45,960 nt of DNA, taken from IMG/VR virus record IMGVR_UViG_3300020049_011007; one strand, 5' to 3'. Below the pieces are notes generated by a model, which was not told the DNA's origin, ran no database searches, and was given only the letters and a program-made list of their open reading frames with translations. The position numbers and the translations under genes are program-made. Within the stretch, counting starts at the first letter, position 1; each line of letters begins with the position of its first letter. Source of the DNA: a virus. Below, piece after piece: positions 1 to 45,960 of the stretch.

Positions 1-121
1 GCCCTGCGGTTCCTAAGACCATAGCTTTAAATGGGCTATCTGGAGGGCAAGGCTCAACATAACAATTAACCATGCGCTCAGCAGAAACCAAGCCAGATTT
101 TGCTCTGTAAGAATTAATTCC
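1..121. repeat. Terminal direct repeat; 1..121 is identical to 45840..45960 (circular assembly overlap)
   Basis: Read directly: both copies run gccctgcggttcctaagacc ... gaattaattcc. The repeat lies inside a CDS. Confidence 0.95.
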
Positions 122-2859: not shown

Positions 2860-4950
2860 TTAGTCTCTGTAAAAGCGTTGTTTAATTTTTTTTGATTCTT
2901 CTTCTGGGTTTATATTATATGTCATGCCTGGGTTTTGTTTTTTTCGCTCAATTAAATATTTGCGGATTTCTTCTTCTGACATATCATTGTCTTCTGCCGA
3001 GGAGTTAGGAATAATATCTGATTTGGCTCCTATCATTCCCCCTAGAACGGCTGGATAAATACTGTTAATTACTTTCTGAATTATCGGCTTTTGGGTCGAA
3101 TCGGCTTTATTTACAATGCTCTCTAGCATCTGAATGCTAGCCTTCTTGTTAATAAGAATTTTAGTAAGCTCTTCAGCACTTTTCTTGTTTAATCCATCAT
3201 AATGATGAGTTAAAGCAGTTTTAACTGCATGCATACCTTGAAAAGATACTTTTGACCCAGTAGCAATAGAGGCAACTGCCCCTACTAATTTTGATAAAAT
3301 ATTAGGGTTAGTTTCAACCTCATGTCTATCAAGACCATAATTCTTAATTGTTTTATCATAACTAATTTCCTCTTTCATCTTACGGGAAAAATCATTAAAT
3401 CTATTTTTATCTCCTTTGAAACTAGCTGATAATTGTTTTTGGATATGATGATTGTTAAAAAGCTTTTCAGCGGGAGTCTTAGATTTATCAGCTAGCTCTT
3501 GCATTCTTAATCTTTGGCCTATTCTAAATGAATCGATTTCAGATTGACCTAATTTACTCAATTTTATTTTTATTTCTTCTGGAGATAATTTATCAAATTT
3601 ACGCCCTATATCTTGTGCATTTTGCACAGCAAAATCTCCAGCGTAAATATTACGCGCCTTTTTATAGTCAGGGTTTAATATATCCATCTTACTCAAAAGA
3701 AGATTTTTGTATTGTTGCAATTTTGCACCCTTAGAGGTAATTTTATTTGTCACTGGATCAGTTTCCTTTTCAATCAATGAATCTAGACCCTTTTTTAGCA
3801 TGTCAACATTCCTAGTTGTTGGAGTAAGAAATTTATTTGGCTCAATTTTTATGCCATGCTCAATTTGGAATAGAGATGAAGCTTCTTTTGCAGCCTTACT
3901 GGTAAAATCAGAACGACTGGTAATTAAATGTTCTAATTCATGGTCTTTAAAAATATGATCGCCAAACTCATTAACCTCTCCCCCACTATTAGTAGGCTTA
4001 TAAGAATAAGCTTTATCGTAATTCATAAATCCAAAGGCTTTCTGCGTTGCGCGTTTCTTAGCATAATTACTAAAATAATCCTCAACTGGCGAAATATCTT
4101 TTGATAGAATATCACTTATTCTTTCGGCAACCTTTTCTTTTCTTCCCGCAGCGAATTCAGCGGCGATTTGCTTAGATTGTGGATATTTACTCATCGTTGT
4201 TTTGATGAGATTTTGGAATTCGGGAGAATCAATATCTAAAGCCGTTGTTGGCTGCCCTTCTGGGCTTGTTTTTAGTTGTTTTAAAGCTTTTGAAGCGACT
4301 TCGGGAGAGATTGCCTCTTGAGCTATTTGTTCACCCGTCTTCTTACTTAATAAGCCTTTTACAGCAGATGCGCCTTTTCCAATCATATTAGTCGCGGCAG
4401 GAATAATGCTTGCAATCGCAGGAGCAGCTACAGCTCCAATTGCCCCACTTGCCAAAGCATCTTGAGCAACTCCACCCATAGCTTCTTTTTCACTAACTCC
4501 AGCTCCACCAATTGCACCAAGCATGCCACCAGCAGCAGCTAATTTAGGAATTGAGGAGGTGCCAGTTAATCCAACTTTACCCAAAGCGGCAGCTTCAAAA
4601 GGAATATCCGATGCAAACCCAATAGTGCCAGATTGTATTGGATATGTCTCTTGAGCTTGTTTTAATTTGTTTCTTTCAGAGTTTCTGGCTTCACGATACA
4701 AATCACCAATATCAATATCTTTGGTCGCAGCACCGCCAAAAGTCTTAGCAGTAAGCGCAGCAATACCAGCTTTGATTTCATCGCCAAAGTTTAAAGGGTT
4801 GGTTGCTGTAATGAATGCAGCTTCACCGCGACCCATTTCTGGGGCTTGTGGTTTAACTGGATCCAATTGAAAGCCCGCAGGTAATCCTTGAGGTTGAGAA
4901 GTTTGTTGAGGCTGGTCTAATTGAAAACCTTCTGGGAGTTCTATTGCCAT
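2860..4950 (-). CDS. Large internal virion / ejection protein
   Basis: 696 aa and last of three consecutive large non-enzymatic proteins. Duplicated N-terminal LP.GFQLD motif, a Gly/Ala-rich hydrophobic segment, and a basic tail. Confidence 0.5.
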   Translation of the reverse strand: MAIELPEGFQLDQPQQTSQPQGLPAGFQLDPVKPQAPEMGRGEAAFITATNPLNFGDEIKAGIAALTAKTFGGAATKDIDIGDLYREARNSERNKLKQAQETYPIQSGTIGFASDIPFEAAALGKVGLTGTSSIPKLAAAGGMLGAIGGAGVSEKEAMGGVAQDALASGAIGAVAAPAIASIIPAATNMIGKGASAVKGLLSKKTGEQIAQEAISPEVASKALKQLKTSPEGQPTTALDIDSPEFQNLIKTTMSKYPQSKQIAAEFAAGRKEKVAERISDILSKDISPVEDYFSNYAKKRATQKAFGFMNYDKAYSYKPTNSGGEVNEFGDHIFKDHELEHLITSRSDFTSKAAKEASSLFQIEHGIKIEPNKFLTPTTRNVDMLKKGLDSLIEKETDPVTNKITSKGAKLQQYKNLLLSKMDILNPDYKKARNIYAGDFAVQNAQDIGRKFDKLSPEEIKIKLSKLGQSEIDSFRIGQRLRMQELADKSKTPAEKLFNNHHIQKQLSASFKGDKNRFNDFSRKMKEEISYDKTIKNYGLDRHEVETNPNILSKLVGAVASIATGSKVSFQGMHAVKTALTHHYDGLNKKSAEELTKILINKKASIQMLESIVNKADSTQKPIIQKVINSIYPAVLGGMIGAKSDIIPNSSAEDNDMSEEEIRKYLIERKKQNPGMTYNINPEEESKKIKQRFYRD

Positions 4951-21393: not shown

Positions 21394-22932
21394 ATGAAAA
21401 ACAAATTAATTAATGAAATAACAAAATACGCTCAAGGCATGAATTGCCAAGCGGATGTTTTTGAATGGATTGAGAAACATTTAACAGGCCATCTTGCAAA
21501 AAATAACTCTGAGCAAGGAGAAATCGAGCATATTATCGACTATCTAGCTTCAGATAAAAGACCAAAGCGCTTGAGTAAAATGTCTTATGAGCAAGCTAAA
21601 ACAAACGGCGAGAAATGGCTCAAAGTGTTAGCAAAGAAAGGCAAAGACATTAAAGAAGTTGAGGGCGATGTTGAGGTAATCAAGGATTTTGGTGACGGCT
21701 TTAGAATCGTGAAGCTTATCGGCGAATCTGCTTACAAAAGAGAGGGATTTTTGATGGCTCATTGCGTGGCGAGCTATTACGGATCTAGTAAAGAAATTTA
21801 CTCACTGCGCGATTCTAAAAATATGCCTCATTGCACCATGGAAAAAGACCAGCAAATTAAAGGCAAGGGCAACGGCTCTATTTCTCCCAAATACATTGGC
21901 TACGTTGTTGCTTTTTTGGAAGAGGTCGGGATGTCGGTTGGTGATTCAGAAATGAAGAATCTTGGTTATATTAATGTTGAGAAAATTAAGACCAAACTGC
22001 ACCAAACAGAAAATAAATTCTTTAATAACAAATACCTATTCCAGCAAGCTCAATGGCTGGATTTGGAGGGCGAAGAATATTCCGACTTAGATATTTTTGA
22101 TTACAAAGAGCTGATCTCGGAAACAAAAAGCTCTTCTCTTGAATTCAATCTGAAAATCAATTTCAATCTTTCTGTTTTTTTGAAAAAATCTATTACTCAT
22201 TTTTTTTCTTCTACAAAAGAAATTAGCTCAGGTAATTACAGCCAGAATGCTAGCTCAGGTAATTACAGCCAGAATGCTAGCTCGGGTGATGACAGCCAGA
22301 ATGCTAGCTCGGGTGATCGCAGCCAGAATGCTAGCTCGGGTAATTACAGCCAGAATGCTAGCTCGGGTGATCGCAGCCAGAATGCTAGCTCGGGTGATGA
22401 CAGCCAGAATGCTAGCTCGGGTAATTACAGCAAGAATGCTAGCTCGGGTAATTACAGCCAGAATGCTAGCTCGGGTGATGACAGCCAGAATGCTAGCTCG
22501 GGTAATTACAGCAAGAATGCTAGCTCAGGTTATGGCAGCAAGAATGCTAGCTCGGGTGATGACAGCCAGAATGCTAGCTCAGGTAATTACAGCCAGAATG
22601 CTAGCTCGGGTGATGACAGCCGGAATGCTAGCTCGGGTAATTACAGCCGGAATGCTAGCTCGGGTGATCGCAGCAAGAATGCTAGCTCAGGTTATGGCAG
22701 CAAGAATGCTAGCTCGGGTAAAAATTCTGTGTTAATGGCTTGTCATCATGAAAGCCAAGTAAAAGGCTCTAATGGAACTCTGATTGCGCTAGTTCTTCAT
22801 AAAAAAGAAGGCGATTTCTTGATTCCAAAAAAAATAACTACTGGAGAGATTGGCAAAAATGGTTTAAAAGAGAATGTTTGGTATAAATTAGACGACAATG
22901 GCAACTTTATTGAGTCGGGAGATAAAGATTAA
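21394..22932 (+). CDS. PcfJ-like domain protein with 18 x 9-aa tandem repeats and a conserved C-terminal domain
   Basis: YKREGFLMAHCVASYYGSSKEIYSLRDSKNMPHCTME resembles the PcfJ-like core. Next come (SSG-xx-S-x-NA) x18, then a C-terminal ...VKGSNGTLIALV...GEIGKNGLKENVWYKLDDNGNFIE. Confidence 0.6.
   Translation: MKNKLINEITKYAQGMNCQADVFEWIEKHLTGHLAKNNSEQGEIEHIIDYLASDKRPKRLSKMSYEQAKTNGEKWLKVLAKKGKDIKEVEGDVEVIKDFGDGFRIVKLIGESAYKREGFLMAHCVASYYGSSKEIYSLRDSKNMPHCTMEKDQQIKGKGNGSISPKYIGYVVAFLEEVGMSVGDSEMKNLGYINVEKIKTKLHQTENKFFNNKYLFQQAQWLDLEGEEYSDLDIFDYKELISETKSSSLEFNLKINFNLSVFLKKSITHFFSSTKEISSGNYSQNASSGNYSQNASSGDDSQNASSGDRSQNASSGNYSQNASSGDRSQNASSGDDSQNASSGNYSKNASSGNYSQNASSGDDSQNASSGNYSKNASSGYGSKNASSGDDSQNASSGNYSQNASSGDDSRNASSGNYSRNASSGDRSKNASSGYGSKNASSGKNSVLMACHHESQVKGSNGTLIALVLHKKEGDFLIPKKITTGEIGKNGLKENVWYKLDDNGNFIESGDKD
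22225..22710 (+). repeat. 18 perfect-phase tandem copies of a 27-nt unit (agctcRggt NNNNNN agc VRg aatgct)
   Basis: Counted directly: 486 nt = 18 x 27, in frame within the CDS. Confidence 0.95.
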
Positions 22933-24144: not shown

Positions 24145-24370
24145 AATGAAACTAACAGAAAAACAATTGAAGGCTAAAAAACTAGAAATTCTAAGGCTTA
24201 AGCACGAATCAGTTCTTTTGAAAGAAGATATCGCCGCGCTAGTGGAAAAAAGAAACGCAATTAGAAGAAAGGGTTCTGCTCTTGTTAAAAAACCTTTAAG
24301 AATTTTAGAGGAAAAGCTTTTAGTGACTGATGGTCAAATTGAGAAACTTTTACAGGAGATTTTAAAATGA
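24134..24370 (+). CDS. Hypothetical coiled-coil protein
   Basis: ORF track. Confidence 0.5.
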   Translation: MRLKMKLTEKQLKAKKLEILRLKHESVLLKEDIAALVEKRNAIRRKGSALVKKPLRILEEKLLVTDGQIEKLLQEILK

Positions 24371-24555
24371 GCGAAAAACTTCAAGAAATTTTAGTTGCGG
24401 TAGTATTAATTGCAGCTTTGGTGGCTTTTATGGTTTGGAATGTAATAGTAGAAATCGAAGAAACCGAGCAAGAGCAGTTTGGGCAAATTATTGAATCAAC
24501 TTGGAATCAAGAGTTTAATCAAGAAAAAGAGTTGACATTTCCTTGGATTTATTAA
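24367..24555 (+). CDS. Small membrane protein
   Basis: ATGA overlap with the upstream gene; TM helix ILVAVVLIAALVAFMVWNVIV. Confidence 0.5.
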   Translation: MSEKLQEILVAVVLIAALVAFMVWNVIVEIEETEQEQFGQIIESTWNQEFNQEKELTFPWIY

Positions 24556-24561
24556 TAAATG
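24532..24561 (+). promoter_or_regulatory. Sigma70-like promoter facing the ORF-free structured region
   Basis: Perfect -35 TTGACA (24532..24537), N18, then TAAATG (24556..24561). Compare the TAAAGT -10 of the other early promoters. Confidence 0.45.
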
Positions 24562-24566
24562 AGGAG

Positions 24567-25020
24567 CGGTTTTTTTCATTCCCGCACGTTAGCGTAGTCC
24601 TCACCTTTCATAGGCCAGCGGTTCGAATCCCTGCTACGCTAACATTTCAACTTTACTGGTTCCAGCGACTCCCTCACTTTATTATTTTGGAGTTATTCAC
24701 TGGAACTTGTAGAGCTGAAAGGTTCTAAACACTACGTCTTTAGACGGAGGCTTGTTCGTGATACAATGGCTGCAATTCTTAGAATTGATGGGTGCTATTG
24801 GCGGAACTCACGCGCTAAATGGTGCACTCGTTTAGCAAGCTGCAAGCGATGGAGAATCTGTGGGAGTAATTACCTGCCATTTTCTGGGGCTGCGAAGGTG
24901 TGAACTTCGCTAGTGTTTGCTTGAAATCACTGCGTAGCGGGGGTTTTGAGTCACACGCTTCCTTAAAAAAGAAGTGTGCCTTAGTAAATTCTAAGGCCAA
25001 CCCCAAGTACAGAGGCGGGC
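24567..25020 (+). ncRNA. Candidate large structured RNA or long structured leader (unclassified)
   Basis: There is no credible ORF. The region is locally GC-rich (35/60 G+C in 24581..24640) and has several stems of 6 bp or more (see findings). Confidence 0.45.
24588..24643 (+). ncRNA. tRNA-like minihelix (not a canonical tRNA)
   Basis: 10-bp acceptor-like stem GTTAGCGTAG/CTACGCTAAC and canonical T-loop GGTTCGAATCC (24620..24630). The T stem needs a bulged C, there is no D arm, and the whole element is only 56 nt. Confidence 0.5.
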
Positions 25021-25072
25021 TTCATGCTCGGCGCATTGATGGCTTGGAATTATAATTTAAAGAGAAGAAAAA

Positions 25073-25315
25073 ATCGAAGAAACAACTACTATCGGAGAAT
25101 TTAGGATAAGAACAAAAATTAACCCGTCTCAAGAAGATATTGTTGACCATATTAAACAAAAAACGGCTGATATCATTAATTTAGTTTCCGAAATAAGATA
25201 TGAAGGAGAAGCGGATTATATTGCCAAAGAGAGGGCGAGATTAGTAGCTTTAGCTCTTACATCTTACGAACAGGCTGCTATGTGGGCTGTTAAAGCTGCG
25301 ACATTATCATTATAA
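25073..25315 (+). CDS. Conserved-looking small helical protein with no canonical start codon (ATC at 25073 proposed)
   Basis: The frame is open over 25061..25315 (84 codons) with no ATG, GTG or TTG before codon 74. ...INPSQEDIVDHIKQKTADIINLV...RARLVALALTSYEQAAMWAVKAATLSL. Confidence 0.4.
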   Translation: MEETTTIGEFRIRTKINPSQEDIVDHIKQKTADIINLVSEIRYEGEADYIAKERARLVALALTSYEQAAMWAVKAATLSL

Positions 25316-25322
25316 TTAGATT

Positions 25323-25493
25323 ATGAAAAAATACGAAATTATCTATCAAGCGAAGGTGACTATTGTAGTTGAAGCTTCTAATGAACAGGCGGCTCTTAAT
25401 AAAGCCCAAAAGGCAACATTGAAGGCTAGTGAGCAAGATGGTATTTATCTTGAGCCAATTGGTACTGAATTTAAATTTAATGAGATCGAATAA
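25323..25493 (+). CDS. Small hypothetical protein (56 aa)
   Basis: ATG 7 nt after the preceding stop. MKKYEIIYQAKVTIVVEASNEQAALNKAQKATLKASEQDGIYLEPIGTEFKFNEIE. Confidence 0.5.
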   Translation: MKKYEIIYQAKVTIVVEASNEQAALNKAQKATLKASEQDGIYLEPIGTEFKFNEIE

Positions 25494-25572
25494 AGGAACG
25501 CACTAACTTCATATGAAAGACTCGACAAAGACAGCGGGTTGAAAGAGGGAGGAAATGCAGGAGTTGTGAAGA

Positions 25573-25818
25573 TTAGTGCGAATAATCATGCAACTCAATT
25601 TCCTCAATGTCTTTAAATAAACCCAGAAAGTCCAATACTGCTAATGCCGCTTGAGGGCTTAAAATTCTCAAGTAATTATCGCAGCACGGCTTCTGGGTTA
25701 ATTTCTTCGTATTTCTATGCATGTCTAAAAAACGTGTATAGAAAAGCGCGGAAATGCGTGGGCTTTCTGACAAATCTTCGTGGTCAATGAAGGGCAGTTC
25801 AAACCCATCATACTGCAC
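25573..25818 (-). CDS. Lone opposite-strand ORF inside the rightward module
   Basis: It is the only ORF of 60 aa or more on either strand across 25500..25830. 81 aa, ATG start. Confidence 0.4.
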   Translation of the reverse strand: MQYDGFELPFIDHEDLSESPRISALFYTRFLDMHRNTKKLTQKPCCDNYLRILSPQAALAVLDFLGLFKDIEEIELHDYSH

Positions 25819-25833
25819 AATTTTATTAAAACT

Positions 25834-26118
25834 ATGACTGAAATTTACAATCGCGAAAAAGGATTAACTTTAAGCGCAGAAAAAAGCAATTCACTTACTA
25901 CTTTTAAAATTTTCCGCGATGTTATTATTCGAGATAATCTTAAGAAGAGGCTAGACATCACTGGTCAAGTTGATGCAAAAGGACTTATTGATTTTAAAGT
26001 AAACGTACCCTTAAATTCCAGCAGTTATTTTGACGGATTTTGCAGCGATATGCAATGGGTATCTAGTGAACTTAAAAAAATAGTTGAAGCACTGGACGCG
26101 ATGACCCCAACGCCGTAA
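25834..26118 (+). CDS. Hypothetical protein
   Basis: The track ORF is 25780..26118. The ATG at 25834 (MTEIYNREKG...) avoids overlap with the antisense ORF. Confidence 0.5.
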   Translation: MTEIYNREKGLTLSAEKSNSLTTFKIFRDVIIRDNLKKRLDITGQVDAKGLIDFKVNVPLNSSSYFDGFCSDMQWVSSELKKIVEALDAMTPTP

Positions 26119-26172
26119 GAACGGGGCAAATAATTCTTGATTCTTAGGAATAGGGGTTGAGAGTAGTAGAAG

Positions 26173-26216
26173 AAATTAATCATCAGGGCACGGAGATTAA
26201 TTTTGATTTCTTTTTT
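26173..26216 (+). terminator. AT-rich hairpin plus T-tract (weak terminator or operator)
   Basis: AAATTAATC (26173..26181) pairs with GATTAATTT (26195..26203) and is followed by tgatttctttttt. Confidence 0.3.
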
Positions 26217-26271
26217 ATGGTCGGGATGAGTGCCCTTGTTCCGACCGCCAAACTACAAAGGGCACATACTA

Positions 26272-27054
26272 ATGTCAGAAAAAATCAGAGATAGCTTCAT
26301 ATTTTATCGAAGCTTCTACCAATCAGCAAAAAAACTACCAAAAGAAGACAAGGCAGAGCTTTTTGATGCTATTTGCTCTTATGCCCTTGATGGCGAATCA
26401 GTTGAAATGTCAGTAGTCCCAGAAGCTATTTTTACAGTAATCAAACCTAACTTAGACGCAAACAGGCGTAAGTGGGAGAATGGGTGCAAAGAGAAGAAGA
26501 AGTCTAGCGAAAGTGAAGCTGAAGAAGATCAAGAAATAAGCAAAGACGAAGCAAACGATAAGCAAACTATAAGCAAAGCACAAGGCAATGTAAATGTAGA
26601 TGTTAATGATAATGAAGAATGTAAATCAGAATTAAAATCTAAATCAGAATCTAAAAGATTTTTCCGCCCAACTCTCCAAGAAGTTTCAGATTATTGCCAA
26701 GAAAGAAAAAACACAGTCAATCCTCAAAAGTGGATTAACCACTATGAAAGCAATGGATGGAAAGTAGGTAAAAACTCAATGAAAGATTGGAAAGCTGCTG
26801 TAAGAACTTGGGAAGGTAATAGTTTTAATTCTACTCCAAAACCAGAAACAACCAAAGACTCATTCTGCCAAGACCTAAACCAATCACTAGGTCAAGACTT
26901 AATCAAAAGCCTAATCGAAGGCGAAATAATCACAATAAAACTAACTGGCGCTTCTGCAAACGATAAATGGGACGCATTGAGTCAAGATTTAAAAGAAAGC
27001 GTTCTTGCAAAAGTGAAAGCCAAATTCGGCAAAGAAACTAAAATCTCATTTTAA
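26272..27054 (+). CDS. Replisome organizer / helicase-loader-type replication protein
   Basis: N-terminus DSFIFYRSFYQSAKKLPKEDKAELFDAICSYALDG (DUF6291-like). C-terminus FRPTLQEVSDYCQERKN...WINHYESNGWKVGKNSMKDWKAAVRTWE is typical of phage replication-initiation proteins. It lies directly upstream of dnaB. Confidence 0.6.
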   Translation: MSEKIRDSFIFYRSFYQSAKKLPKEDKAELFDAICSYALDGESVEMSVVPEAIFTVIKPNLDANRRKWENGCKEKKKSSESEAEEDQEISKDEANDKQTISKAQGNVNVDVNDNEECKSELKSKSESKRFFRPTLQEVSDYCQERKNTVNPQKWINHYESNGWKVGKNSMKDWKAAVRTWEGNSFNSTPKPETTKDSFCQDLNQSLGQDLIKSLIEGEIITIKLTGASANDKWDALSQDLKESVLAKVKAKFGKETKISF

Positions 27055-28539: not shown

Positions 28540-29718
28540 ATGAAAGCATACAAAGTTAAAATCTATCCAAACAAAACACAGCAAAAAGCACTAGATGCTA
28601 ATTTTGGATGCTGCCGTTTTGTTTATAATAAGATGATAGAGATTAACCAGAAAAAGTATCATAGGACTGGCAAAGGGTTATCTAGTTATGAGATGAGTGC
28701 TTACTTACCAAAGATTAAGAAACAATACACTTTCTTAAAAGAAGCTAATTCTCAATCTCTTCAAGTAGTTTGCCACAATCTTGCTGATGCTTATAGTAAA
28801 TTCTTCCAAAAAAGAAGAGGGTTCCCTAATTTTAAGAAAAAGAATCATAAACAATCTTTCTCAACAACTAATAATTGTCGATTACTTGAGAATCGTTTGA
28901 GTTTACCAAAGATAGGTTTAGTAAAATTTAGAGGCGGAGAAAGACCCGAGGGTAAAACTAAGGCTTTCACTATCTCAAAAGATGCCACTGGTTATTATGC
29001 CAGCATTTTATTTGATGATGGTAAAAAAAACATTCTTGAGCAGGAAGTTAATAATGTTTTGGGAATTGATCTCGGAATTAAGGATTTTGCGATTTTGAGT
29101 AATGGCAAGAAGGTGAAGAATATGAGATTCACCAAGACCCATGAAAGAAAATTAAGAAAGTGGCAAAAAGCTTTGTCAAGAAGGGTCAAAGGAGGCAAGA
29201 AGAGAGAGCAAGCTAAGATAATGGTTGGCAGGATTCATAAGAATATTGCTAATCAAAGATTGGATTTTGCTCACAAAGTTTCAAGGCAGATTGTTAATAG
29301 TTGCGATAACCAAACAGCTATTGCGGTCGAGTCGTTAGCAGTTTCAAACATGATGAAAAACCACAGTTTAGCAAAAAGTATTGCTGATTGTGCTTGGAAT
29401 CAGTTTGGAACTTTTCTGAAATACAAAGCCGCCGATGTTGGCAAACAAGTGATTGAGATTGGGAGATTTTACCCAAGCTCGAAAACCTGTTCATCGTGTG
29501 GAGTTGTAAATGGTGATCTGAAGTTGAGTGATAGGAATTGGAAGTGTAGCAGTTGTGAATCAGAGCATGATCGCGACCTAAATGCTGCAATCAATATCGC
29601 AATGGAAGGCGCTAGAATATACAAAGCGGGCAGGAAGCTCGCTGGTGGAGAGGATGTTAGCCTTGGGATGATATTGCAAAATATCGAACAAGCTACCTCT
29701 GTGAAGCCGTTAAACTAA
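28540..29718 (+). CDS. tnpB: TnpB RNA-guided endonuclease (IS605 OrfB family)
   Basis: MKAYKVKIYPNKTQ...FGCCRFVYN N-terminus. RuvC D in GIDLGIKDFA, E in AIAVESLAV, zinc ribbon CSSCGVV...CSSCESEH, and RuvC-III HDRDLNAAINI. Confidence 0.9.
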   Translation: MKAYKVKIYPNKTQQKALDANFGCCRFVYNKMIEINQKKYHRTGKGLSSYEMSAYLPKIKKQYTFLKEANSQSLQVVCHNLADAYSKFFQKRRGFPNFKKKNHKQSFSTTNNCRLLENRLSLPKIGLVKFRGGERPEGKTKAFTISKDATGYYASILFDDGKKNILEQEVNNVLGIDLGIKDFAILSNGKKVKNMRFTKTHERKLRKWQKALSRRVKGGKKREQAKIMVGRIHKNIANQRLDFAHKVSRQIVNSCDNQTAIAVESLAVSNMMKNHSLAKSIADCAWNQFGTFLKYKAADVGKQVIEIGRFYPSSKTCSSCGVVNGDLKLSDRNWKCSSCESEHDRDLNAAINIAMEGARIYKAGRKLAGGEDVSLGMILQNIEQATSVKPLN

Positions 29719-30925: not shown

Positions 30926-30954
30926 TTGCAAGTTAGAAAAGGTGTGTTTAAAGT
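30926..30954 (+). promoter_or_regulatory. Early/middle promoter with a shared operator-like block
   Basis: TTGCAA (30926..30931), N17, TAAAGT (30949..30954). The 24-nt block AAAGGTGTGTTTAAAGTGTGTTTA (30938..30961) is identical to 35026..35049. Confidence 0.6.
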
Positions 30955-30987
30955 GTGTTTATCGAACAACAACAAATGAGGGACAAA

Positions 30988-35013: not shown

Positions 35014-35042
35014 TTGACTAATAAGAAAGGTGTGTTTAAAGT
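35014..35042 (+). promoter_or_regulatory. Promoter with the shared operator-like block
   Basis: TTGACT (35014..35019), N17, TAAAGT (35037..35042); the 24-nt block is at 35026..35049. Confidence 0.6.
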
Positions 35043-35067
35043 GTGTTTAACAATTAATTCTAAAAAA

Positions 35068-44566: not shown

Positions 44567-45960
44567 GAGTCTCCTAATGTAGAATTTAAGAAGGCTCCAA
44601 CGATTGCAAATTTAGTAGGCTCGCTGTAAGTCACTTCAAAAATAGCGCTTCTTCCATAGCCAAGACTTGTCCAAAAAACTTCCCGCATGTATTGCCCTAC
44701 AGTTCCAATTGGCTCAGTAGCTAGAAAGCCCCAAGTTTGTCCGCCATCGGTAGAAACGCTAAGCATTATTTGAGGGTCTGAACCTTGTCCAGTAATTAGG
44801 CCAACTCCCGTGTCCATCATTAAAGTAAAGCGGTCTAGGGTAGCTCTGGAGAAATCTGCGAACTGAGTGGCGCTGATAATTTTGCGTAAAATGGTAGAGC
44901 CATTCTCGGTGTAAACATCTGCATCTGCTTGATAAATAACTCCAGTTTCAAAATCACCAAAGAGATTCAAGCCATTGAAGAAAGCATGAGTAGTAGCTCT
45001 CCACTGCCCTTGACTTTGTTGAGCGTTTAAACTTTCTCTTTCGTGCCAAAGATTGGTTGTGATATTATACTGCCAAGTTTTATTTTCGCTTGGAAAGGTT
45101 AAAGTGTAGAATTTATGACCGTTTATTACGTGGGTAAAGCCATAAGCGTCTGAAACTGTAGAGTATTTCTCAATTTCTTGAGAAATAGGAAAAGTAGAAA
45201 TAGGAACTAGCTGATAGCCATTTGTTTGATAAATTAATCTATCATTTCCTAAGAAGAAAAATCCACCATCAAGACTTGCCACAGAATACTTTGCAGCGCA
45301 ACCCTTCTGAATAAATACACCTTCTTTACGGTCGAAGATGTACCCTGGACGAGCAGAATTATAATAGACTTCGGTAATATTTTCTTTAAAAAACCAAAGC
45401 TCTAAATTATTCATTGCAACACGTACAATATTAGAAGAATCCGCTTCGACTGATTGAAAATTTAGCGCTCCATAAGACTCGGTAGCATTAATATTAGACC
45501 ATTGAAAGGTGCGACCTTGTTGTTTAGTGAAAACTGTATATCCGTCAAGAGTTGCCACAGAGTCAGACAATTGGTAATCAGAGTCGGTAATTTGGGTCAA
45601 TGAAGATGCGGTAGATGTGCAATAATAAGCAGTTCCACTATCTGTAAGAATAGTGACTTGCGTGCCATTGTTCGTCATCATTACGCGGCTTGGCGCTGTT
45701 GCGATAGTGCCTAAGCTAGTGACGGTTTTGGTAGAGTCTATTTTATAAACATTTGGGCCTGCTACAACGTAAAGATTCTCACCCATTATCTCCATTCCGT
45801 AGATAGGAAAACCAATGTTTAAATCTTTCCAGACGGAAAGCCCTGCGGTTCCTAAGACCATAGCTTTAAATGGGCTATCTGGAGGGCAAGGCTCAACATA
45901 ACAATTAACCATGCGCTCAGCAGAAACCAAGCCAGATTTTGCTCTGTAAGAATTAATTCC
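44563..45960 (-). CDS. Tail hub protein, P22 gp10-like (5' end continues past the window edge, equivalent to 122..148)
   Basis: About 474 aa when wrapped. The N-terminal ERMVNCYVEP parallels gp10 YLPVNMLATP. The body looks beta-propeller-like, and the gene follows the gp4-like gene. Confidence 0.5.
   Translation of the reverse strand, partial: GINSYRAKSGLVSAERMVNCYVEPCPPDSPFKAMVLGTAGLSVWKDLNIGFPIYGMEIMGENLYVVAGPNVYKIDSTKTVTSLGTIATAPSRVMMTNNGTQVTILTDSGTAYYCTSTASSLTQITDSDYQLSDSVATLDGYTVFTKQQGRTFQWSNINATESYGALNFQSVEADSSNIVRVAMNNLELWFFKENITEVYYNSARPGYIFDRKEGVFIQKGCAAKYSVASLDGGFFFLGNDRLIYQTNGYQLVPISTFPISQEIEKYSTVSDAYGFTHVINGHKFYTLTFPSENKTWQYNITTNLWHERESLNAQQSQGQWRATTHAFFNGLNLFGDFETGVIYQADADVYTENGSTILRKIISATQFADFSRATLDRFTLMMDTGVGLITGQGSDPQIMLSVSTDGGQTWGFLATEPIGTVGQYMREVFWTSLGYGRSAIFEVTYSEPTKFAIVGAFLNSTLGDS
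45840..45960. repeat. Second copy of the 121-bp terminal direct repeat
   Basis: Identical to 1..121. Confidence 0.95.

Follow-up and report, generated by a model that had tools for sequence, protein, structure and literature searches.

Genome setting and coding content

The present study describes a gene-free stretch of about 0.5 kb (24556-25050) in a phage genome of the IMG/VR database (virus record IMGVR_UViG_3300020049_011007), of which the whole sequence of 45,960 nucleotides (nt) is called the window. We found that the locus is a non-coding mosaic chain of autonomous + strand RNA folds, and that it contains a tRNA-like element devoid of a D-arm and a hairpin with an invariant tip, here called the tip hairpin (Table 1). 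The first and the last 121 nt of the window (1-121 and 45840-45960) were identical, and the phage genome that it represents is nearly complete, at ~45.8 kb, and either circularly assembled or terminally redundant. The gene-free stretch was bounded by the stop codon of a membrane-protein open reading frame (ORF) of 62 amino acids (aa) at 24555 and by an Acb2/Tad1-like frame from about 25061. All genes from 20.4 to 38.7 kb were found to be co-oriented, and no phage RNA polymerase was found among the window ORFs scanned. The G+C content was 46% over 24556-25060 and 38.6% over the whole window.

An original prediction, made from the window sequence by eye, had described this locus as an ORF-free, G+C-rich and structured RNA. 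Its count of 35 G+C in the 60 nt of 24581-24640 was reproduced, and the complementary segments it listed were all found in place by direct reading. The stretch contained only ORFs of 45-63 aa (a 61-aa ORF from TTG, an antisense ORF of 63 aa, and two of 45 and 51 aa), which agrees with the predicted lack of coding content, and each of the three forward frames carried 8-12 stop codons. Between the stretch and the 83%-identical relative L069 the substitutions were distributed over the codon positions as 23/18/24 (p=0.62), without 3-nt periodicity, whereas the upstream 174-aa gene, compared with the same relative, was strongly periodic (25/22/87, p=8e-14). Periodic substitution or an intact ORF in the homologues, either of which would have spoken for a gene, was thus not found. 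Because stops occur in all frames and the substitutions are aperiodic, there is no hidden ORF in the stretch, and 24556-25050 is non-coding.

Mosaic of modules in related phages

A BLASTN search of 24400-25200 against 50,697 GenBank phage records gave no match. The relatives, which are uncultivated phage contigs, were reached via the neighbouring proteins (L069, L070, L183-L188) and via a conserved end motif (L197 and others); L229 was also among the aligned relatives. Genome contigs were also scanned, both for the upstream protein and for the end motif, with no match and hence no clue to a host or a prophage. Collection of homologues by BLASTN followed by a test for covariation had been proposed with the original prediction; the search itself gave nothing among the phage records, whereas covariation was seen in shuffle-controlled scores among sequences obtained by other routes.

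From 5' to 3', the chain contained hairpin H0, the tRNA-like element, hairpins H2 and H3, the multi-branch domain D2, the tip hairpin, hairpins H5 and H6, and a closed domain called block 4. H0, the tRNA-like element, H2 and H3 together form block 1 (24556-24727), which was found in eight contigs; those with the tRNA-like element, apart from the window, were L069, L070, L183, L186, L188, L197, and L229. The tip hairpin was found in most relatives. H5 and H6 were present only in the window, L085, L196, L233, and L242, and block 4 in the window, L069, L070, and L183, with a variant form in L229. D2, the H5/H6 pair, and block 4 were each either there or missing as a whole, with exact borders. The modules were 93-100% identical where the flanking genes were 73-80% identical. 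The relatives were found to carry differing subsets of the modules, some of them reordered and interleaved with small accessory genes. The order of the modules is not fixed, because a palindrome block lies before the tip hairpin in L229 and after it in the window. The length of the full array was 0.6 kb in L069, 1.2 kb in L070, and 1.5 kb in L229.

The stretch forms the left-hand portion of a mosaic region that extends over 24556-26270 and lies, in this phage group, between a gene for a small membrane protein and the DUF6291/DnaB replication genes, with more conserved non-coding blocks at 25494-25835 and 26119-26270. A single RNA of ~500 nt with one architecture, as originally suggested, is not what the relatives show, since the modules are self-contained and vary in subset and order. 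The suggestion of structure at the RNA level held: helices of the tRNA-like element, D2, and the tip hairpin covary, on the + strand.

tRNA-like element

The tRNA-like element contained a 10-bp acceptor-like helix (24588-24597 with 24634-24643), followed by a conserved linker that takes the place of the D-arm, UCCUCA in the window and (U/A)CCUC(A/G) across the relatives, and by a mini hairpin of 3 bp with a 5-nt loop (CCU 24604-24606, AGG 24612-24614). In the T-arm, the C16-A17-G18-(C19 bulge)-G20-G21 nucleotides were paired with C29-C30-C31-U32-G33 (last two digits of 246xx). The T-loop was the canonical UUCGAAU (24622-24628), and the GG-UUCGAAU-CC segment (24620-24630) was kept in all eight contigs. 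The T-arm abutted the 3' strand of the acceptor-like helix with zero spacer. The A24644 nucleotide was unpaired, and the element contained neither an encoded CCA nor a 7-nt anticodon loop. Its pattern can be written as CCTCRCC N{13,16} GGTTYGANTCC N{2,3} CTRCRCTRRC, with a gap of 14 nt.

A covariance model (R1) was built from the copies of L188, L070, L069, and L183 alone. In a search with R1, the window copy reached a score of 35.5 bits (E 1e-6 to 1e-7); the copies of the window, L197, L186, and L229 were recovered at 33-40 bits (E 1e-6 to 1e-8), and over about 1.5 Mb of other phage loci the model found nothing comparable. In a structural alignment of seven sequences, every cell of the acceptor-like helix was paired (100%); in four of the ten pairs both partners had changed (U-A to C-G; U-G intermediates were present), and the mini hairpin and the T-stem also varied on both sides. 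The covariation score was 0.331, compared with 0.190 in shuffles, and none of 500 shuffles reached 0.331; when the alignment was slid, the score fell to 0.02-0.14. The minihelix that had been noticed by eye is thus upheld by a covarying acceptor-like helix, a canonical T-arm and the match of an independent model.

The helix was 10 bp long in all seven aligned sequences and, stacked on the T-stem of 4-5 bp, gives a stack of 14-15 bp. The acceptor and T-stem stack of a tRNA, with its acceptor stem of 7 bp, is 12 bp long, and RNase P and EF-Tu measure that length. ARAGORN reported no tRNA or tmRNA at the locus, only tRNA-Thr and tRNA-Asn at 17.9 kb, and the Rfam tRNA model gave no match at 24588-24644 even at E up to 10. 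A UUCRANY T-loop with the G53-C61 closing pair was present, whereas a cloverleaf with a D-arm and a 7-bp acceptor stem was absent. The element is therefore best regarded, from its sequence features, as a mimic of the acceptor/T half of a tRNA, yet not as a tRNA.

Invariant-tip hairpin

The tip hairpin contained, from its base to its tip, a basal helix, a U-G pair, a C-G pair, an A/G mismatch, and the CUGC-GUA-GCGG nucleotides. The helix of the window reads UUGAAAUC-A-CUGC-GUA-GCGG-G-GGUUUUGA, and the base of the helix in L085 and L196 was UUUAUUC/GGAUAAA. The exact 16-nt core (CACTGCGTAGCGGGGG) was found in 74 IMG/VR contigs. In 38 distinct contexts, the core formed a helix tip in exactly the same register, the helices themselves being unrelated in sequence, and the G+C content of the fetched loci ranged from 0.29 to 0.66. 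The alignment of these hairpins was paired in 90% of cells, with up to six pair types per position, and its covariation score was 0.556, compared with 0.166 in shuffles, of which none of 500 reached 0.556. The hairpin was single-copy in each contig, the window included. A second covariance model (R2), for the tip hairpin, scored the window copy at 45.4 bits and found no diverged tips over 718 kb of other phage DNA.

About 22 contigs of high G+C content (including L200, L203, L206, and L208) were set aside from this set, as they had no basal helix. They contained CACTGCGTAGCGGGGG within a fixed context of 46 nt (CGCACCAC.CGGAG[core]TCGAGCTGCTCGACCG), and this occurrence is probably a conserved coding segment of a phage group of high G+C content.

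In about 10 of the 38 contexts, all outside the window, the tip hairpin was followed by a T-run and stood directly behind a co-oriented gene, such as a tail-fibre gene in relatives of T7-like pelagiphages or an outer-membrane-protein-like gene. It was found in at least five unrelated phage groups with no protein family in common. The search for a partner protein encoded nearby likewise found no family common to the loci that bear the hairpin beyond the phage group of the window, and this candidate was dropped. The hairpin was not found in Rfam, and a full-text literature search for the core gave only chance matches to primers or aptamers. The tip hairpin seems to be an RNA motif that is widespread among viruses and has not been described. 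The constancy of the tip in phages that differ greatly in G+C content argues for a binding partner that is sequence-specific and broadly conserved.

The same hairpin bears on a three-way junction, closed by GGGGTT and AACCCC, which had been drawn in the original prediction. The bases of its closing stem belong to the better-covarying hairpin UUGAAAUC.../...GGUUUUGA around CACUGCGUAGCGGGGG, and L085 and L196 contained both inner hairpins but not the GGGGTT/AACCCC stem. On the evidence of covariation, of these two contigs and of separate folds, the junction was rejected in favour of three consecutive hairpins.

The strand was read from the pairing. In the basal helix of the tip hairpin, G-U pairs outnumbered A-C pairs by 89 to 12, and therefore one strand folds, as RNA does. 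This excess, together with the U-G intermediates of the tRNA-like helix and the T-runs behind about 10 of the 38 tip hairpins, indicates that the + strand is the folding strand. Folding of the whole region gave z scores of -2.95 and -3.24 for the two strands, which does not tell them apart, and it was dropped as evidence of strand.

Other modules of the array

The window hairpins, folded singly, gave z scores of -2.8 to -5.2, whereas the folds of D2 (z -1.4) and block 4 (z -1.1) did not stand out. H0 was kept in all relatives with the tRNA-like element; its stem was invariant, hence it offers no test of covariation. At the position of H2, L070, L069, and L183 contained a hairpin of unrelated sequence (GUUAGAUUAA/UUAAUCUGAC) between conserved flanks, and for H2 the structure seems to have been kept while the sequence was replaced. 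H3 was found in all eight contigs with the tRNA-like element, and the sole changes were G-C to G-U and U-A to U-G.

Table 1. Features of the locus, with their positions in the window
Feature	Position	Strand	Details
Promoter-like site	24532..24561	+	TTGACA 24532-24537, spacer, A/T-rich ATAAAT/TAAATG
Hairpin H0	24566..24585	+	GCGG 24566-24569 / CCGC 24582-24585, 12-nt U-rich loop; z -2.78
tRNA-like element, no D-arm	24588..24644	+	Covariance model; 7-sequence covariation; z -3.75 folded alone
Hairpin H2	24659..24706	+	GUUCCAG/CUGGAAC around ACUCC/GGAGU; z -3.43
Hairpin H3	24711..24726	+	AGAGCU GAAA GGUUCU, GAAA tetraloop cap; z -2.92
Multi-branch domain D2, 190 nt	24728..24919	+	Sealed by AACACUA 24728-24734 / UAGUGUU 24910-24916
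Invariant-tip hairpin	24919..24951	+	Tip CACUGCGUAGCGGGGG; core CACTGCGTAGCGGGGG 24928-24943; covariation, 38 contexts
Hairpin H5	24955-24977	+	ACGCUUC 24955-24961 / GAAGUGU 24971-24977
Hairpin H6	24978-24997	+	GCCUUAG 24978-24984 / CUAAGGC 24991-24997
Block 4, closed 45-nt domain	25003..25047	+	CCAAGU 25003-25008 / GCUUGG 25042-25047; inner hairpin GGGCU-UCAUG-CUCGG
Acb2/Tad1-hairpin-domain ORF (downstream neighbour, not part of the RNA)	25061..25315	+	Pfam PF24729, E 1.2e-10

D2 was found in the window and L069 only. Because it is sealed by its AACACUA/UAGUGUU helix, it was missing as one exact block from L070, L186, L188, L197, and L229. It contained the GCGAAG/CUUCGC hairpin (24892-24910), which was GCCAAG/CUUGGC in the other sequence; this is one of three pairs changed on both sides in the consensus fold of the two sequences, and about 13 one-sided substitutions between them retained pairing.

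H5 and H6, when folded jointly, gave a z score of -5.21. They followed the tip hairpin in L085, L196, L242, and L233 and were absent from L069, L070, L186, L188, and L197; among the relatives their stems were identical and their loops variable. Block 4 was 93-96% identical in L069, L070, and L183, where the flanking genes were 73-80% identical, and its closing stem reached 10 bp in L069 and L070. In L229 the flanks of block 4 were retained and the inner hairpin was swapped for an unrelated one. Block 4 lay about 25-30 nt before a gene in the window, and the copy of L229 lay likewise before a small gene. A metagenome scan with an invariant 20-mer of block 4 returned 30 contigs of 55-71% G+C with 21-32 nt matched, and these were rejected as chance or unrelated matches. 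No module of 24556-25050 was found to recur elsewhere in the window.

The relatives also contained non-coding modules that are not present in the window, at 3344-3988 in L001, 5190-6135 in L070, and 3300-4800 (minus strand) in L229. Among them were a pseudoknot-like AAUAGUGCCUCC...GAACCCGAAAGGAUCGCACCAGUGGGGGA and the segments GCGAUUAGACGCUGAAA and GGACUAAGGGGCUGGCAAGUCUCCUGCCGUGAGGCGAAAGCC, none of which matched Rfam. A segment of L229 (6797-6991, minus strand) gave a sub-threshold match to the Rfam family isrG, an Hfq-binding small RNA (32.4 bits against a threshold of 100 bits, E 6e-5).

Transcription of the locus

The promoter-like site overlapped the last codons and the stop codon of the 62-aa membrane-protein ORF (24367-24555). 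The TTGAC(A/T) nucleotides were invariant in all eight contigs with the tRNA-like element, and the invariant TTGAC lies among the last codons of the upstream gene, where it also encodes a conserved Leu-Thr. A promoter had been predicted here; the perfect TTGACA and the TAAATG 18 nt later are present, but the -10 hexamer is poor, TAAATG and ATAAAT each agreeing with TATAAT at 3 of 6 positions, and a scan with consensus promoters did not call the TTGACA site. We infer a promoter role from the sequence of the site.

The terminator scan gave two calls on the + strand (24860 and 24892), both with weak tails, and a total of 4 calls, compared with 3.0 in shuffles. As had been predicted, no terminator was found between the stretch and the downstream genes. 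None of the window modules stood before a T-run, and hence none qualified as an intrinsic terminator. Because of this lack of a terminator and the co-orientation of the genes from 20.4 to 38.7 kb, the region is almost certainly transcribed rightward, together with the downstream genes.

Neighbouring genes and other features

The ORF directly downstream of the array belongs to the Acb2/Tad1 type, a protein family that soaks up immune signalling molecules. It contained no ATG, GTG, or TTG start; the ATC at 25073 was aligned with the ATG of an 81%-identical homologue in L001, and the gene caller skipped the ORF on the twin contig L187. The ORF may have a non-canonical start or may be a recently disabled gene. 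A group I or group II intron splitting it was considered and rejected, as no intron model matched and the homologue in L001 has an ATG start; because this ATG is aligned exactly with the ATC of the window, the gene is complete without an upstream exon.

Two conserved elements were found before the DUF6291 gene. An H-type pseudoknot was present at 26219-26274, just before the ATG (26272), and contained the helix GGUCGG 26219-26224 / CCGACC 26241-26246 and the loop pairing GUGCCCUU 26230-26237 / AAGGGCAC 26258-26265. The helices of L069, L070, and L085 differed in sequence yet paired, and the CGCCAAACUACA linker was invariant. From its sequence and position the pseudoknot looks like a translational operator, and the GTG start listed for this gene at 26230 is probably wrong. 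The motif CTTGATTCTTAG(A/G)AATAGGGGTTGAGAG (26135-26165) was invariant, about 100 nt upstream of the same gene, and each of the mosaic non-coding arrays has it at the right end. Its 23-nt core, GATTCTTAG(A/G)AATAGGGGTTGAG, was found in 11 IMG/VR contigs, once in the window and with a second partial copy in L085; the motif could be part of a promoter or operator.

The second ORF-free stretch (25494-25835) also contained conserved blocks. A near-palindrome, TTTCTATGCATGTCTAAAAAACGTGTATAGAAAAG, was found at 25713-25747 and was conserved in L001, L070, L085, L183, L190, L194, L196, L197, and L229. The changes in its pairing are strand-ambiguous, and it may be a protein-binding DNA site rather than an RNA hairpin. 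The 112-aa ORF listed from GTG at 25780 more likely starts at ATG 25836.

Elsewhere in the window, about 26 tandem units of 27 nt, encoding a 9-aa repeat, were found at 22116-22817 inside a 512-aa ORF (21394-22932), with a local G+C content of up to 0.5. A TnpB/Cas12f-like gene (IS605 OrfB) was present at 28540-29718, just after the DnaB gene; the guide RNA region of TnpB is expected at the 3' end of its gene. An exact direct repeat of 24 nt, AAAGGTGTGTTTAAAGTGTGTTTA, was found at 30938-30961 and 35026-35049, in intergenic-looking positions 4 kb apart.

Interpretation and alternative explanations

From the sequence comparisons we favour, with a probability of about 0.42, the reading that the modules are portable accessory RNAs which act in trans on host or defence factors, the tRNA-like element being a processing handle or a decoy. 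The host RNA polymerase would transcribe the array rightward, after either starting at the TTGACA site or reading through from the upstream genes, which have the same orientation, and each module would be an autonomous, portable RNA unit, not a piece of one large fold. The tRNA-like element would keep the coaxial acceptor-like helix and T-arm that are read by tRNA-handling proteins, the D-arm and the anticodon loop having been lost. Such a tRNA mimic could be a handle by which enzymes that process tRNA ends release the units from the transcript or, alternatively, a decoy that would be bound by proteins which read the acceptor/T half of tRNA. The tip hairpin would be a sequence-specific site for a broadly conserved, probably host-encoded partner, and the array as a whole would be the RNA counterpart of accessory ('moron') genes, placed beside an Acb2/Tad1-type gene.

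Portable accessory RNAs are favoured because the modules are exchanged and reordered like accessory genes, because no module is constantly upstream of the replication genes, because the tip hairpin recurs in unrelated phages at other positions, and because the region gathers accessory protein genes (the Acb2/Tad1 ORF in the window and L001, the small gene in L229). Several points weigh against this reading. The ends of the transcript, its processing and the action in trans are inferred from sequence, and the -10 candidate matches the consensus at only 3-4 of six positions. The tRNA-like element is known from eight related contigs only, part of its covariation signal could stem from shared ancestry, it has no encoded CCA, and canonical tRNA processing may not apply to a stack of 14-15 bp. 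The structural support for D2 is modest, as it comes from two sequences, and the Acb2-like ORF is found beside the array in two phages only, the window ORF being without a normal start.

The chain could instead be a long structured leader acting in cis, which stabilises, processes or anti-terminates the early-to-replication transcript and thereby tunes the Acb2-like ORF, DUF6291, and DnaB; the tRNA-like element and the 5' hairpin would then be punctuation or stability signals. We consider this possible but doubtful. The lack of a terminator before the downstream genes, the co-orientation from 20.4 to 38.7 kb, and the position of block 4 shortly before a gene in both the window and L229 agree with a leader, and the constant elements just before the DUF6291 start (an invariant 28-nt motif and the pseudoknot, which covaries by eye) suit a cis role. 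The leader is weakened, however, because none of the modules is constant upstream of the replication genes in the relatives, where they are gained, lost and reordered; moreover, no gene follows block 4 in L069, L070, and L183, and in unrelated phages the tip hairpin is differently placed, for example behind the tail-fibre or outer-membrane-protein-like genes. An action of the DNA itself, as a replication origin or as recombination linkers that shuffle accessory genes in a PeSL-like manner, is unlikely. The locus does lie directly upstream of the DUF6291 and DnaB genes, its non-template G-runs could favour R-loops, and blocks of 30-60 nt with 93-100% identity flank variable genes and are shuffled among the relatives, as PeSLs are (PMC2839356, PMC4122927). 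DNA elements, however, do not call for strand-specific G-U pairing in the helices, for a canonical tRNA T-loop, or for compensatory changes that preserve pairing and not sequence. No iterons or A/T-rich unwinding region was seen at the locus, and no module is repeated in the genome, whereas PeSLs are many per genome.

The tip hairpin, and perhaps other modules, might mimic a CRISPR repeat and, as an RNA anti-CRISPR (Racr), sequester Cas proteins. The repeats of CRISPR systems vary from host to host, whereas an identical 16-mer in loci of 0.29 to 0.66 G+C implies very different hosts; a variable basal helix is not a feature of a repeat, and R2 found no diverged variants of the tip in the 718 kb of other phage DNA. 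The tip does resemble type I-F repeats in their 5' half (GUUCACUGCC...) and type I-E repeats in their 3' half (...CAGCGGGGAUAAACC), and it is single-copy, in an accessory region, 130 nt upstream of the Acb2/Tad1-like ORF. Solitary repeat-like hairpins of phages do occur near promoters and anti-defence genes (PMC10651486), but a mimic of this kind is, on the whole, quite improbable here. A single large ornate RNA of the GOLLD/ROOL type with one global fold is more improbable still: the long ORF-free structured stretches (0.5 kb in the window, 1.2 kb in L070, 1.5 kb in L229), the phage setting, the GNRA tetraloops and the adjoining tRNA-like element recall such RNAs, but Rfam gave no match at any threshold, and the content and order of the modules vary, unlike one conserved tertiary architecture. 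Phages often carry tRNA clusters with degenerate copies, and the T-arm is tRNA-like, with tRNA-like families as the best Rfam matches, so the locus might be a decaying tRNA gene cluster, or neutral junk with chance hairpins. We find this scarcely credible, as compensatory changes maintain pairing in eight diverged contigs, the modules are better conserved than the neighbouring genes, and the real tRNA genes lie 6.5 kb off on the opposite strand.

The reading as portable accessory RNAs has a bolder form, somewhat speculative and on balance doubtful, in which the array is an 'RNA accessory island', a new category: a shuffling array of structured RNAs exchanged like anti-defence genes, each binding a conserved host or immune component. 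Such an island would sit beside protein sponges (Acb2/Tad1), and the tip hairpin would then be a viral RNA motif that is both new and very widespread, and whose partner in the cell is universal.

Analyses of phage genomes usually proceed from one gene to the next and mostly pass over what does not code for protein. In the present phage, a stretch of RNA of about 0.5 kb, up to 1.5 kb in relatives, is under clear structural selection, behaves like accessory genes and shares a hot spot with an Acb2/Tad1-type gene. For enzymes or toxins that target the ends of tRNAs, its tRNA mimic is a candidate handle or decoy, and the constancy of the tip across diverse base composition suggests that what binds it is conserved. 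Should the modules act in trans, the means by which phages manipulate their hosts through RNA would go beyond the mimics of CRISPR repeats and antitoxins; if they act in cis, they would be a new set of portable signals for RNA processing or stability.

Comparison with known RNA classes

A search of the window with Rfam 15 at the gathering thresholds gave only the two true tRNAs at 17.9 kb. When hits of E up to 10 were admitted for the window, L001, L070, and a further 31 loci, nothing came up but these two real tRNAs and sub-threshold noise, and no Rfam family reached E=0.1 at the locus or in the relatives. The families that the original prediction had proposed for checking (GOLLD, ROOL, Y RNA, tmRNA, and introns) therefore gave no match, and the resemblance to GOLLD, ROOL or Y RNAs that it had suggested found no counterpart in these searches. 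GOLLD and ROOL were rejected, as their models matched nothing in the window, L001, L070, and the 31 related loci; tmRNA was rejected for want of an ARAGORN or Rfam match, permuted forms included, and YrlA for want of an Rfam match. The TROVE (Ro/Rsr) domain was found in none of the 20 ORFs, a part of those of the window, that were scanned with Pfam.

The best Rfam match at the locus was the mascRNA-menRNA family (19.3 bits against a threshold of 42.5 bits, E 0.49), and it extended end to end. The mascRNA and MEN-beta RNAs are small tRNA-like RNAs released by cleavage of a larger transcript. As in the array, a long non-coding transcript embeds their acceptor-like helix, together with a canonical T-arm and an 'anticodon' hairpin of reduced size. 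They are, however, vertebrate nuclear RNAs, whereas the present element contains a 10-bp helix and no D-arm, and the likeness is one of form, not of ancestry. The YrlA-type RNAs are non-coding RNAs that contain a T-arm-bearing tRNA mimic, and they are known from phages too. The likeness lies in the tRNA-like domain; no long Ro-binding stem closes the element here.

GOLLD and ROOL are long, ORF-free, structured phage RNAs of unknown function that are often found near tRNAs (10.1101/2024.12.08.627333), whereas the modules described here are autonomous and shuffled, without a single conserved architecture. The PeSLs of T4-type phages are short, conserved, intergenic stem-loop cassettes that flank variable accessory genes and show signs of modular shuffling; they are promoter-plus-terminator units with many copies per genome (PMC2839356, PMC4122927). 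In contrast, the present modules and the end motif are single-copy in the window, and the modules include complex folds (the tRNA mimic, the multi-branch domain and the closed domains). Racrs are solitary repeat-like phage hairpins that often follow closely on a promoter and have anti-defence genes nearby (PMC10651486). Together with the pseudo-ToxI mimics of antitoxins, they are small structured phage RNAs in accessory or anti-defence settings that imitate a host RNA to bind its protein. Only a generic half of a tRNA is recognised as imitated in the present array, and the tip, retained across diverse G+C content, argues for a universal partner. There are thus precedents for tRNA-like RNAs, for long structured phage RNAs and for shuffled intergenic cassettes, and in its defining features none of the named families was matched here. 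The D-arm-less element with its 10-bp helix and the invariant-tip hairpin appear to be undescribed RNAs standing beside these classes.

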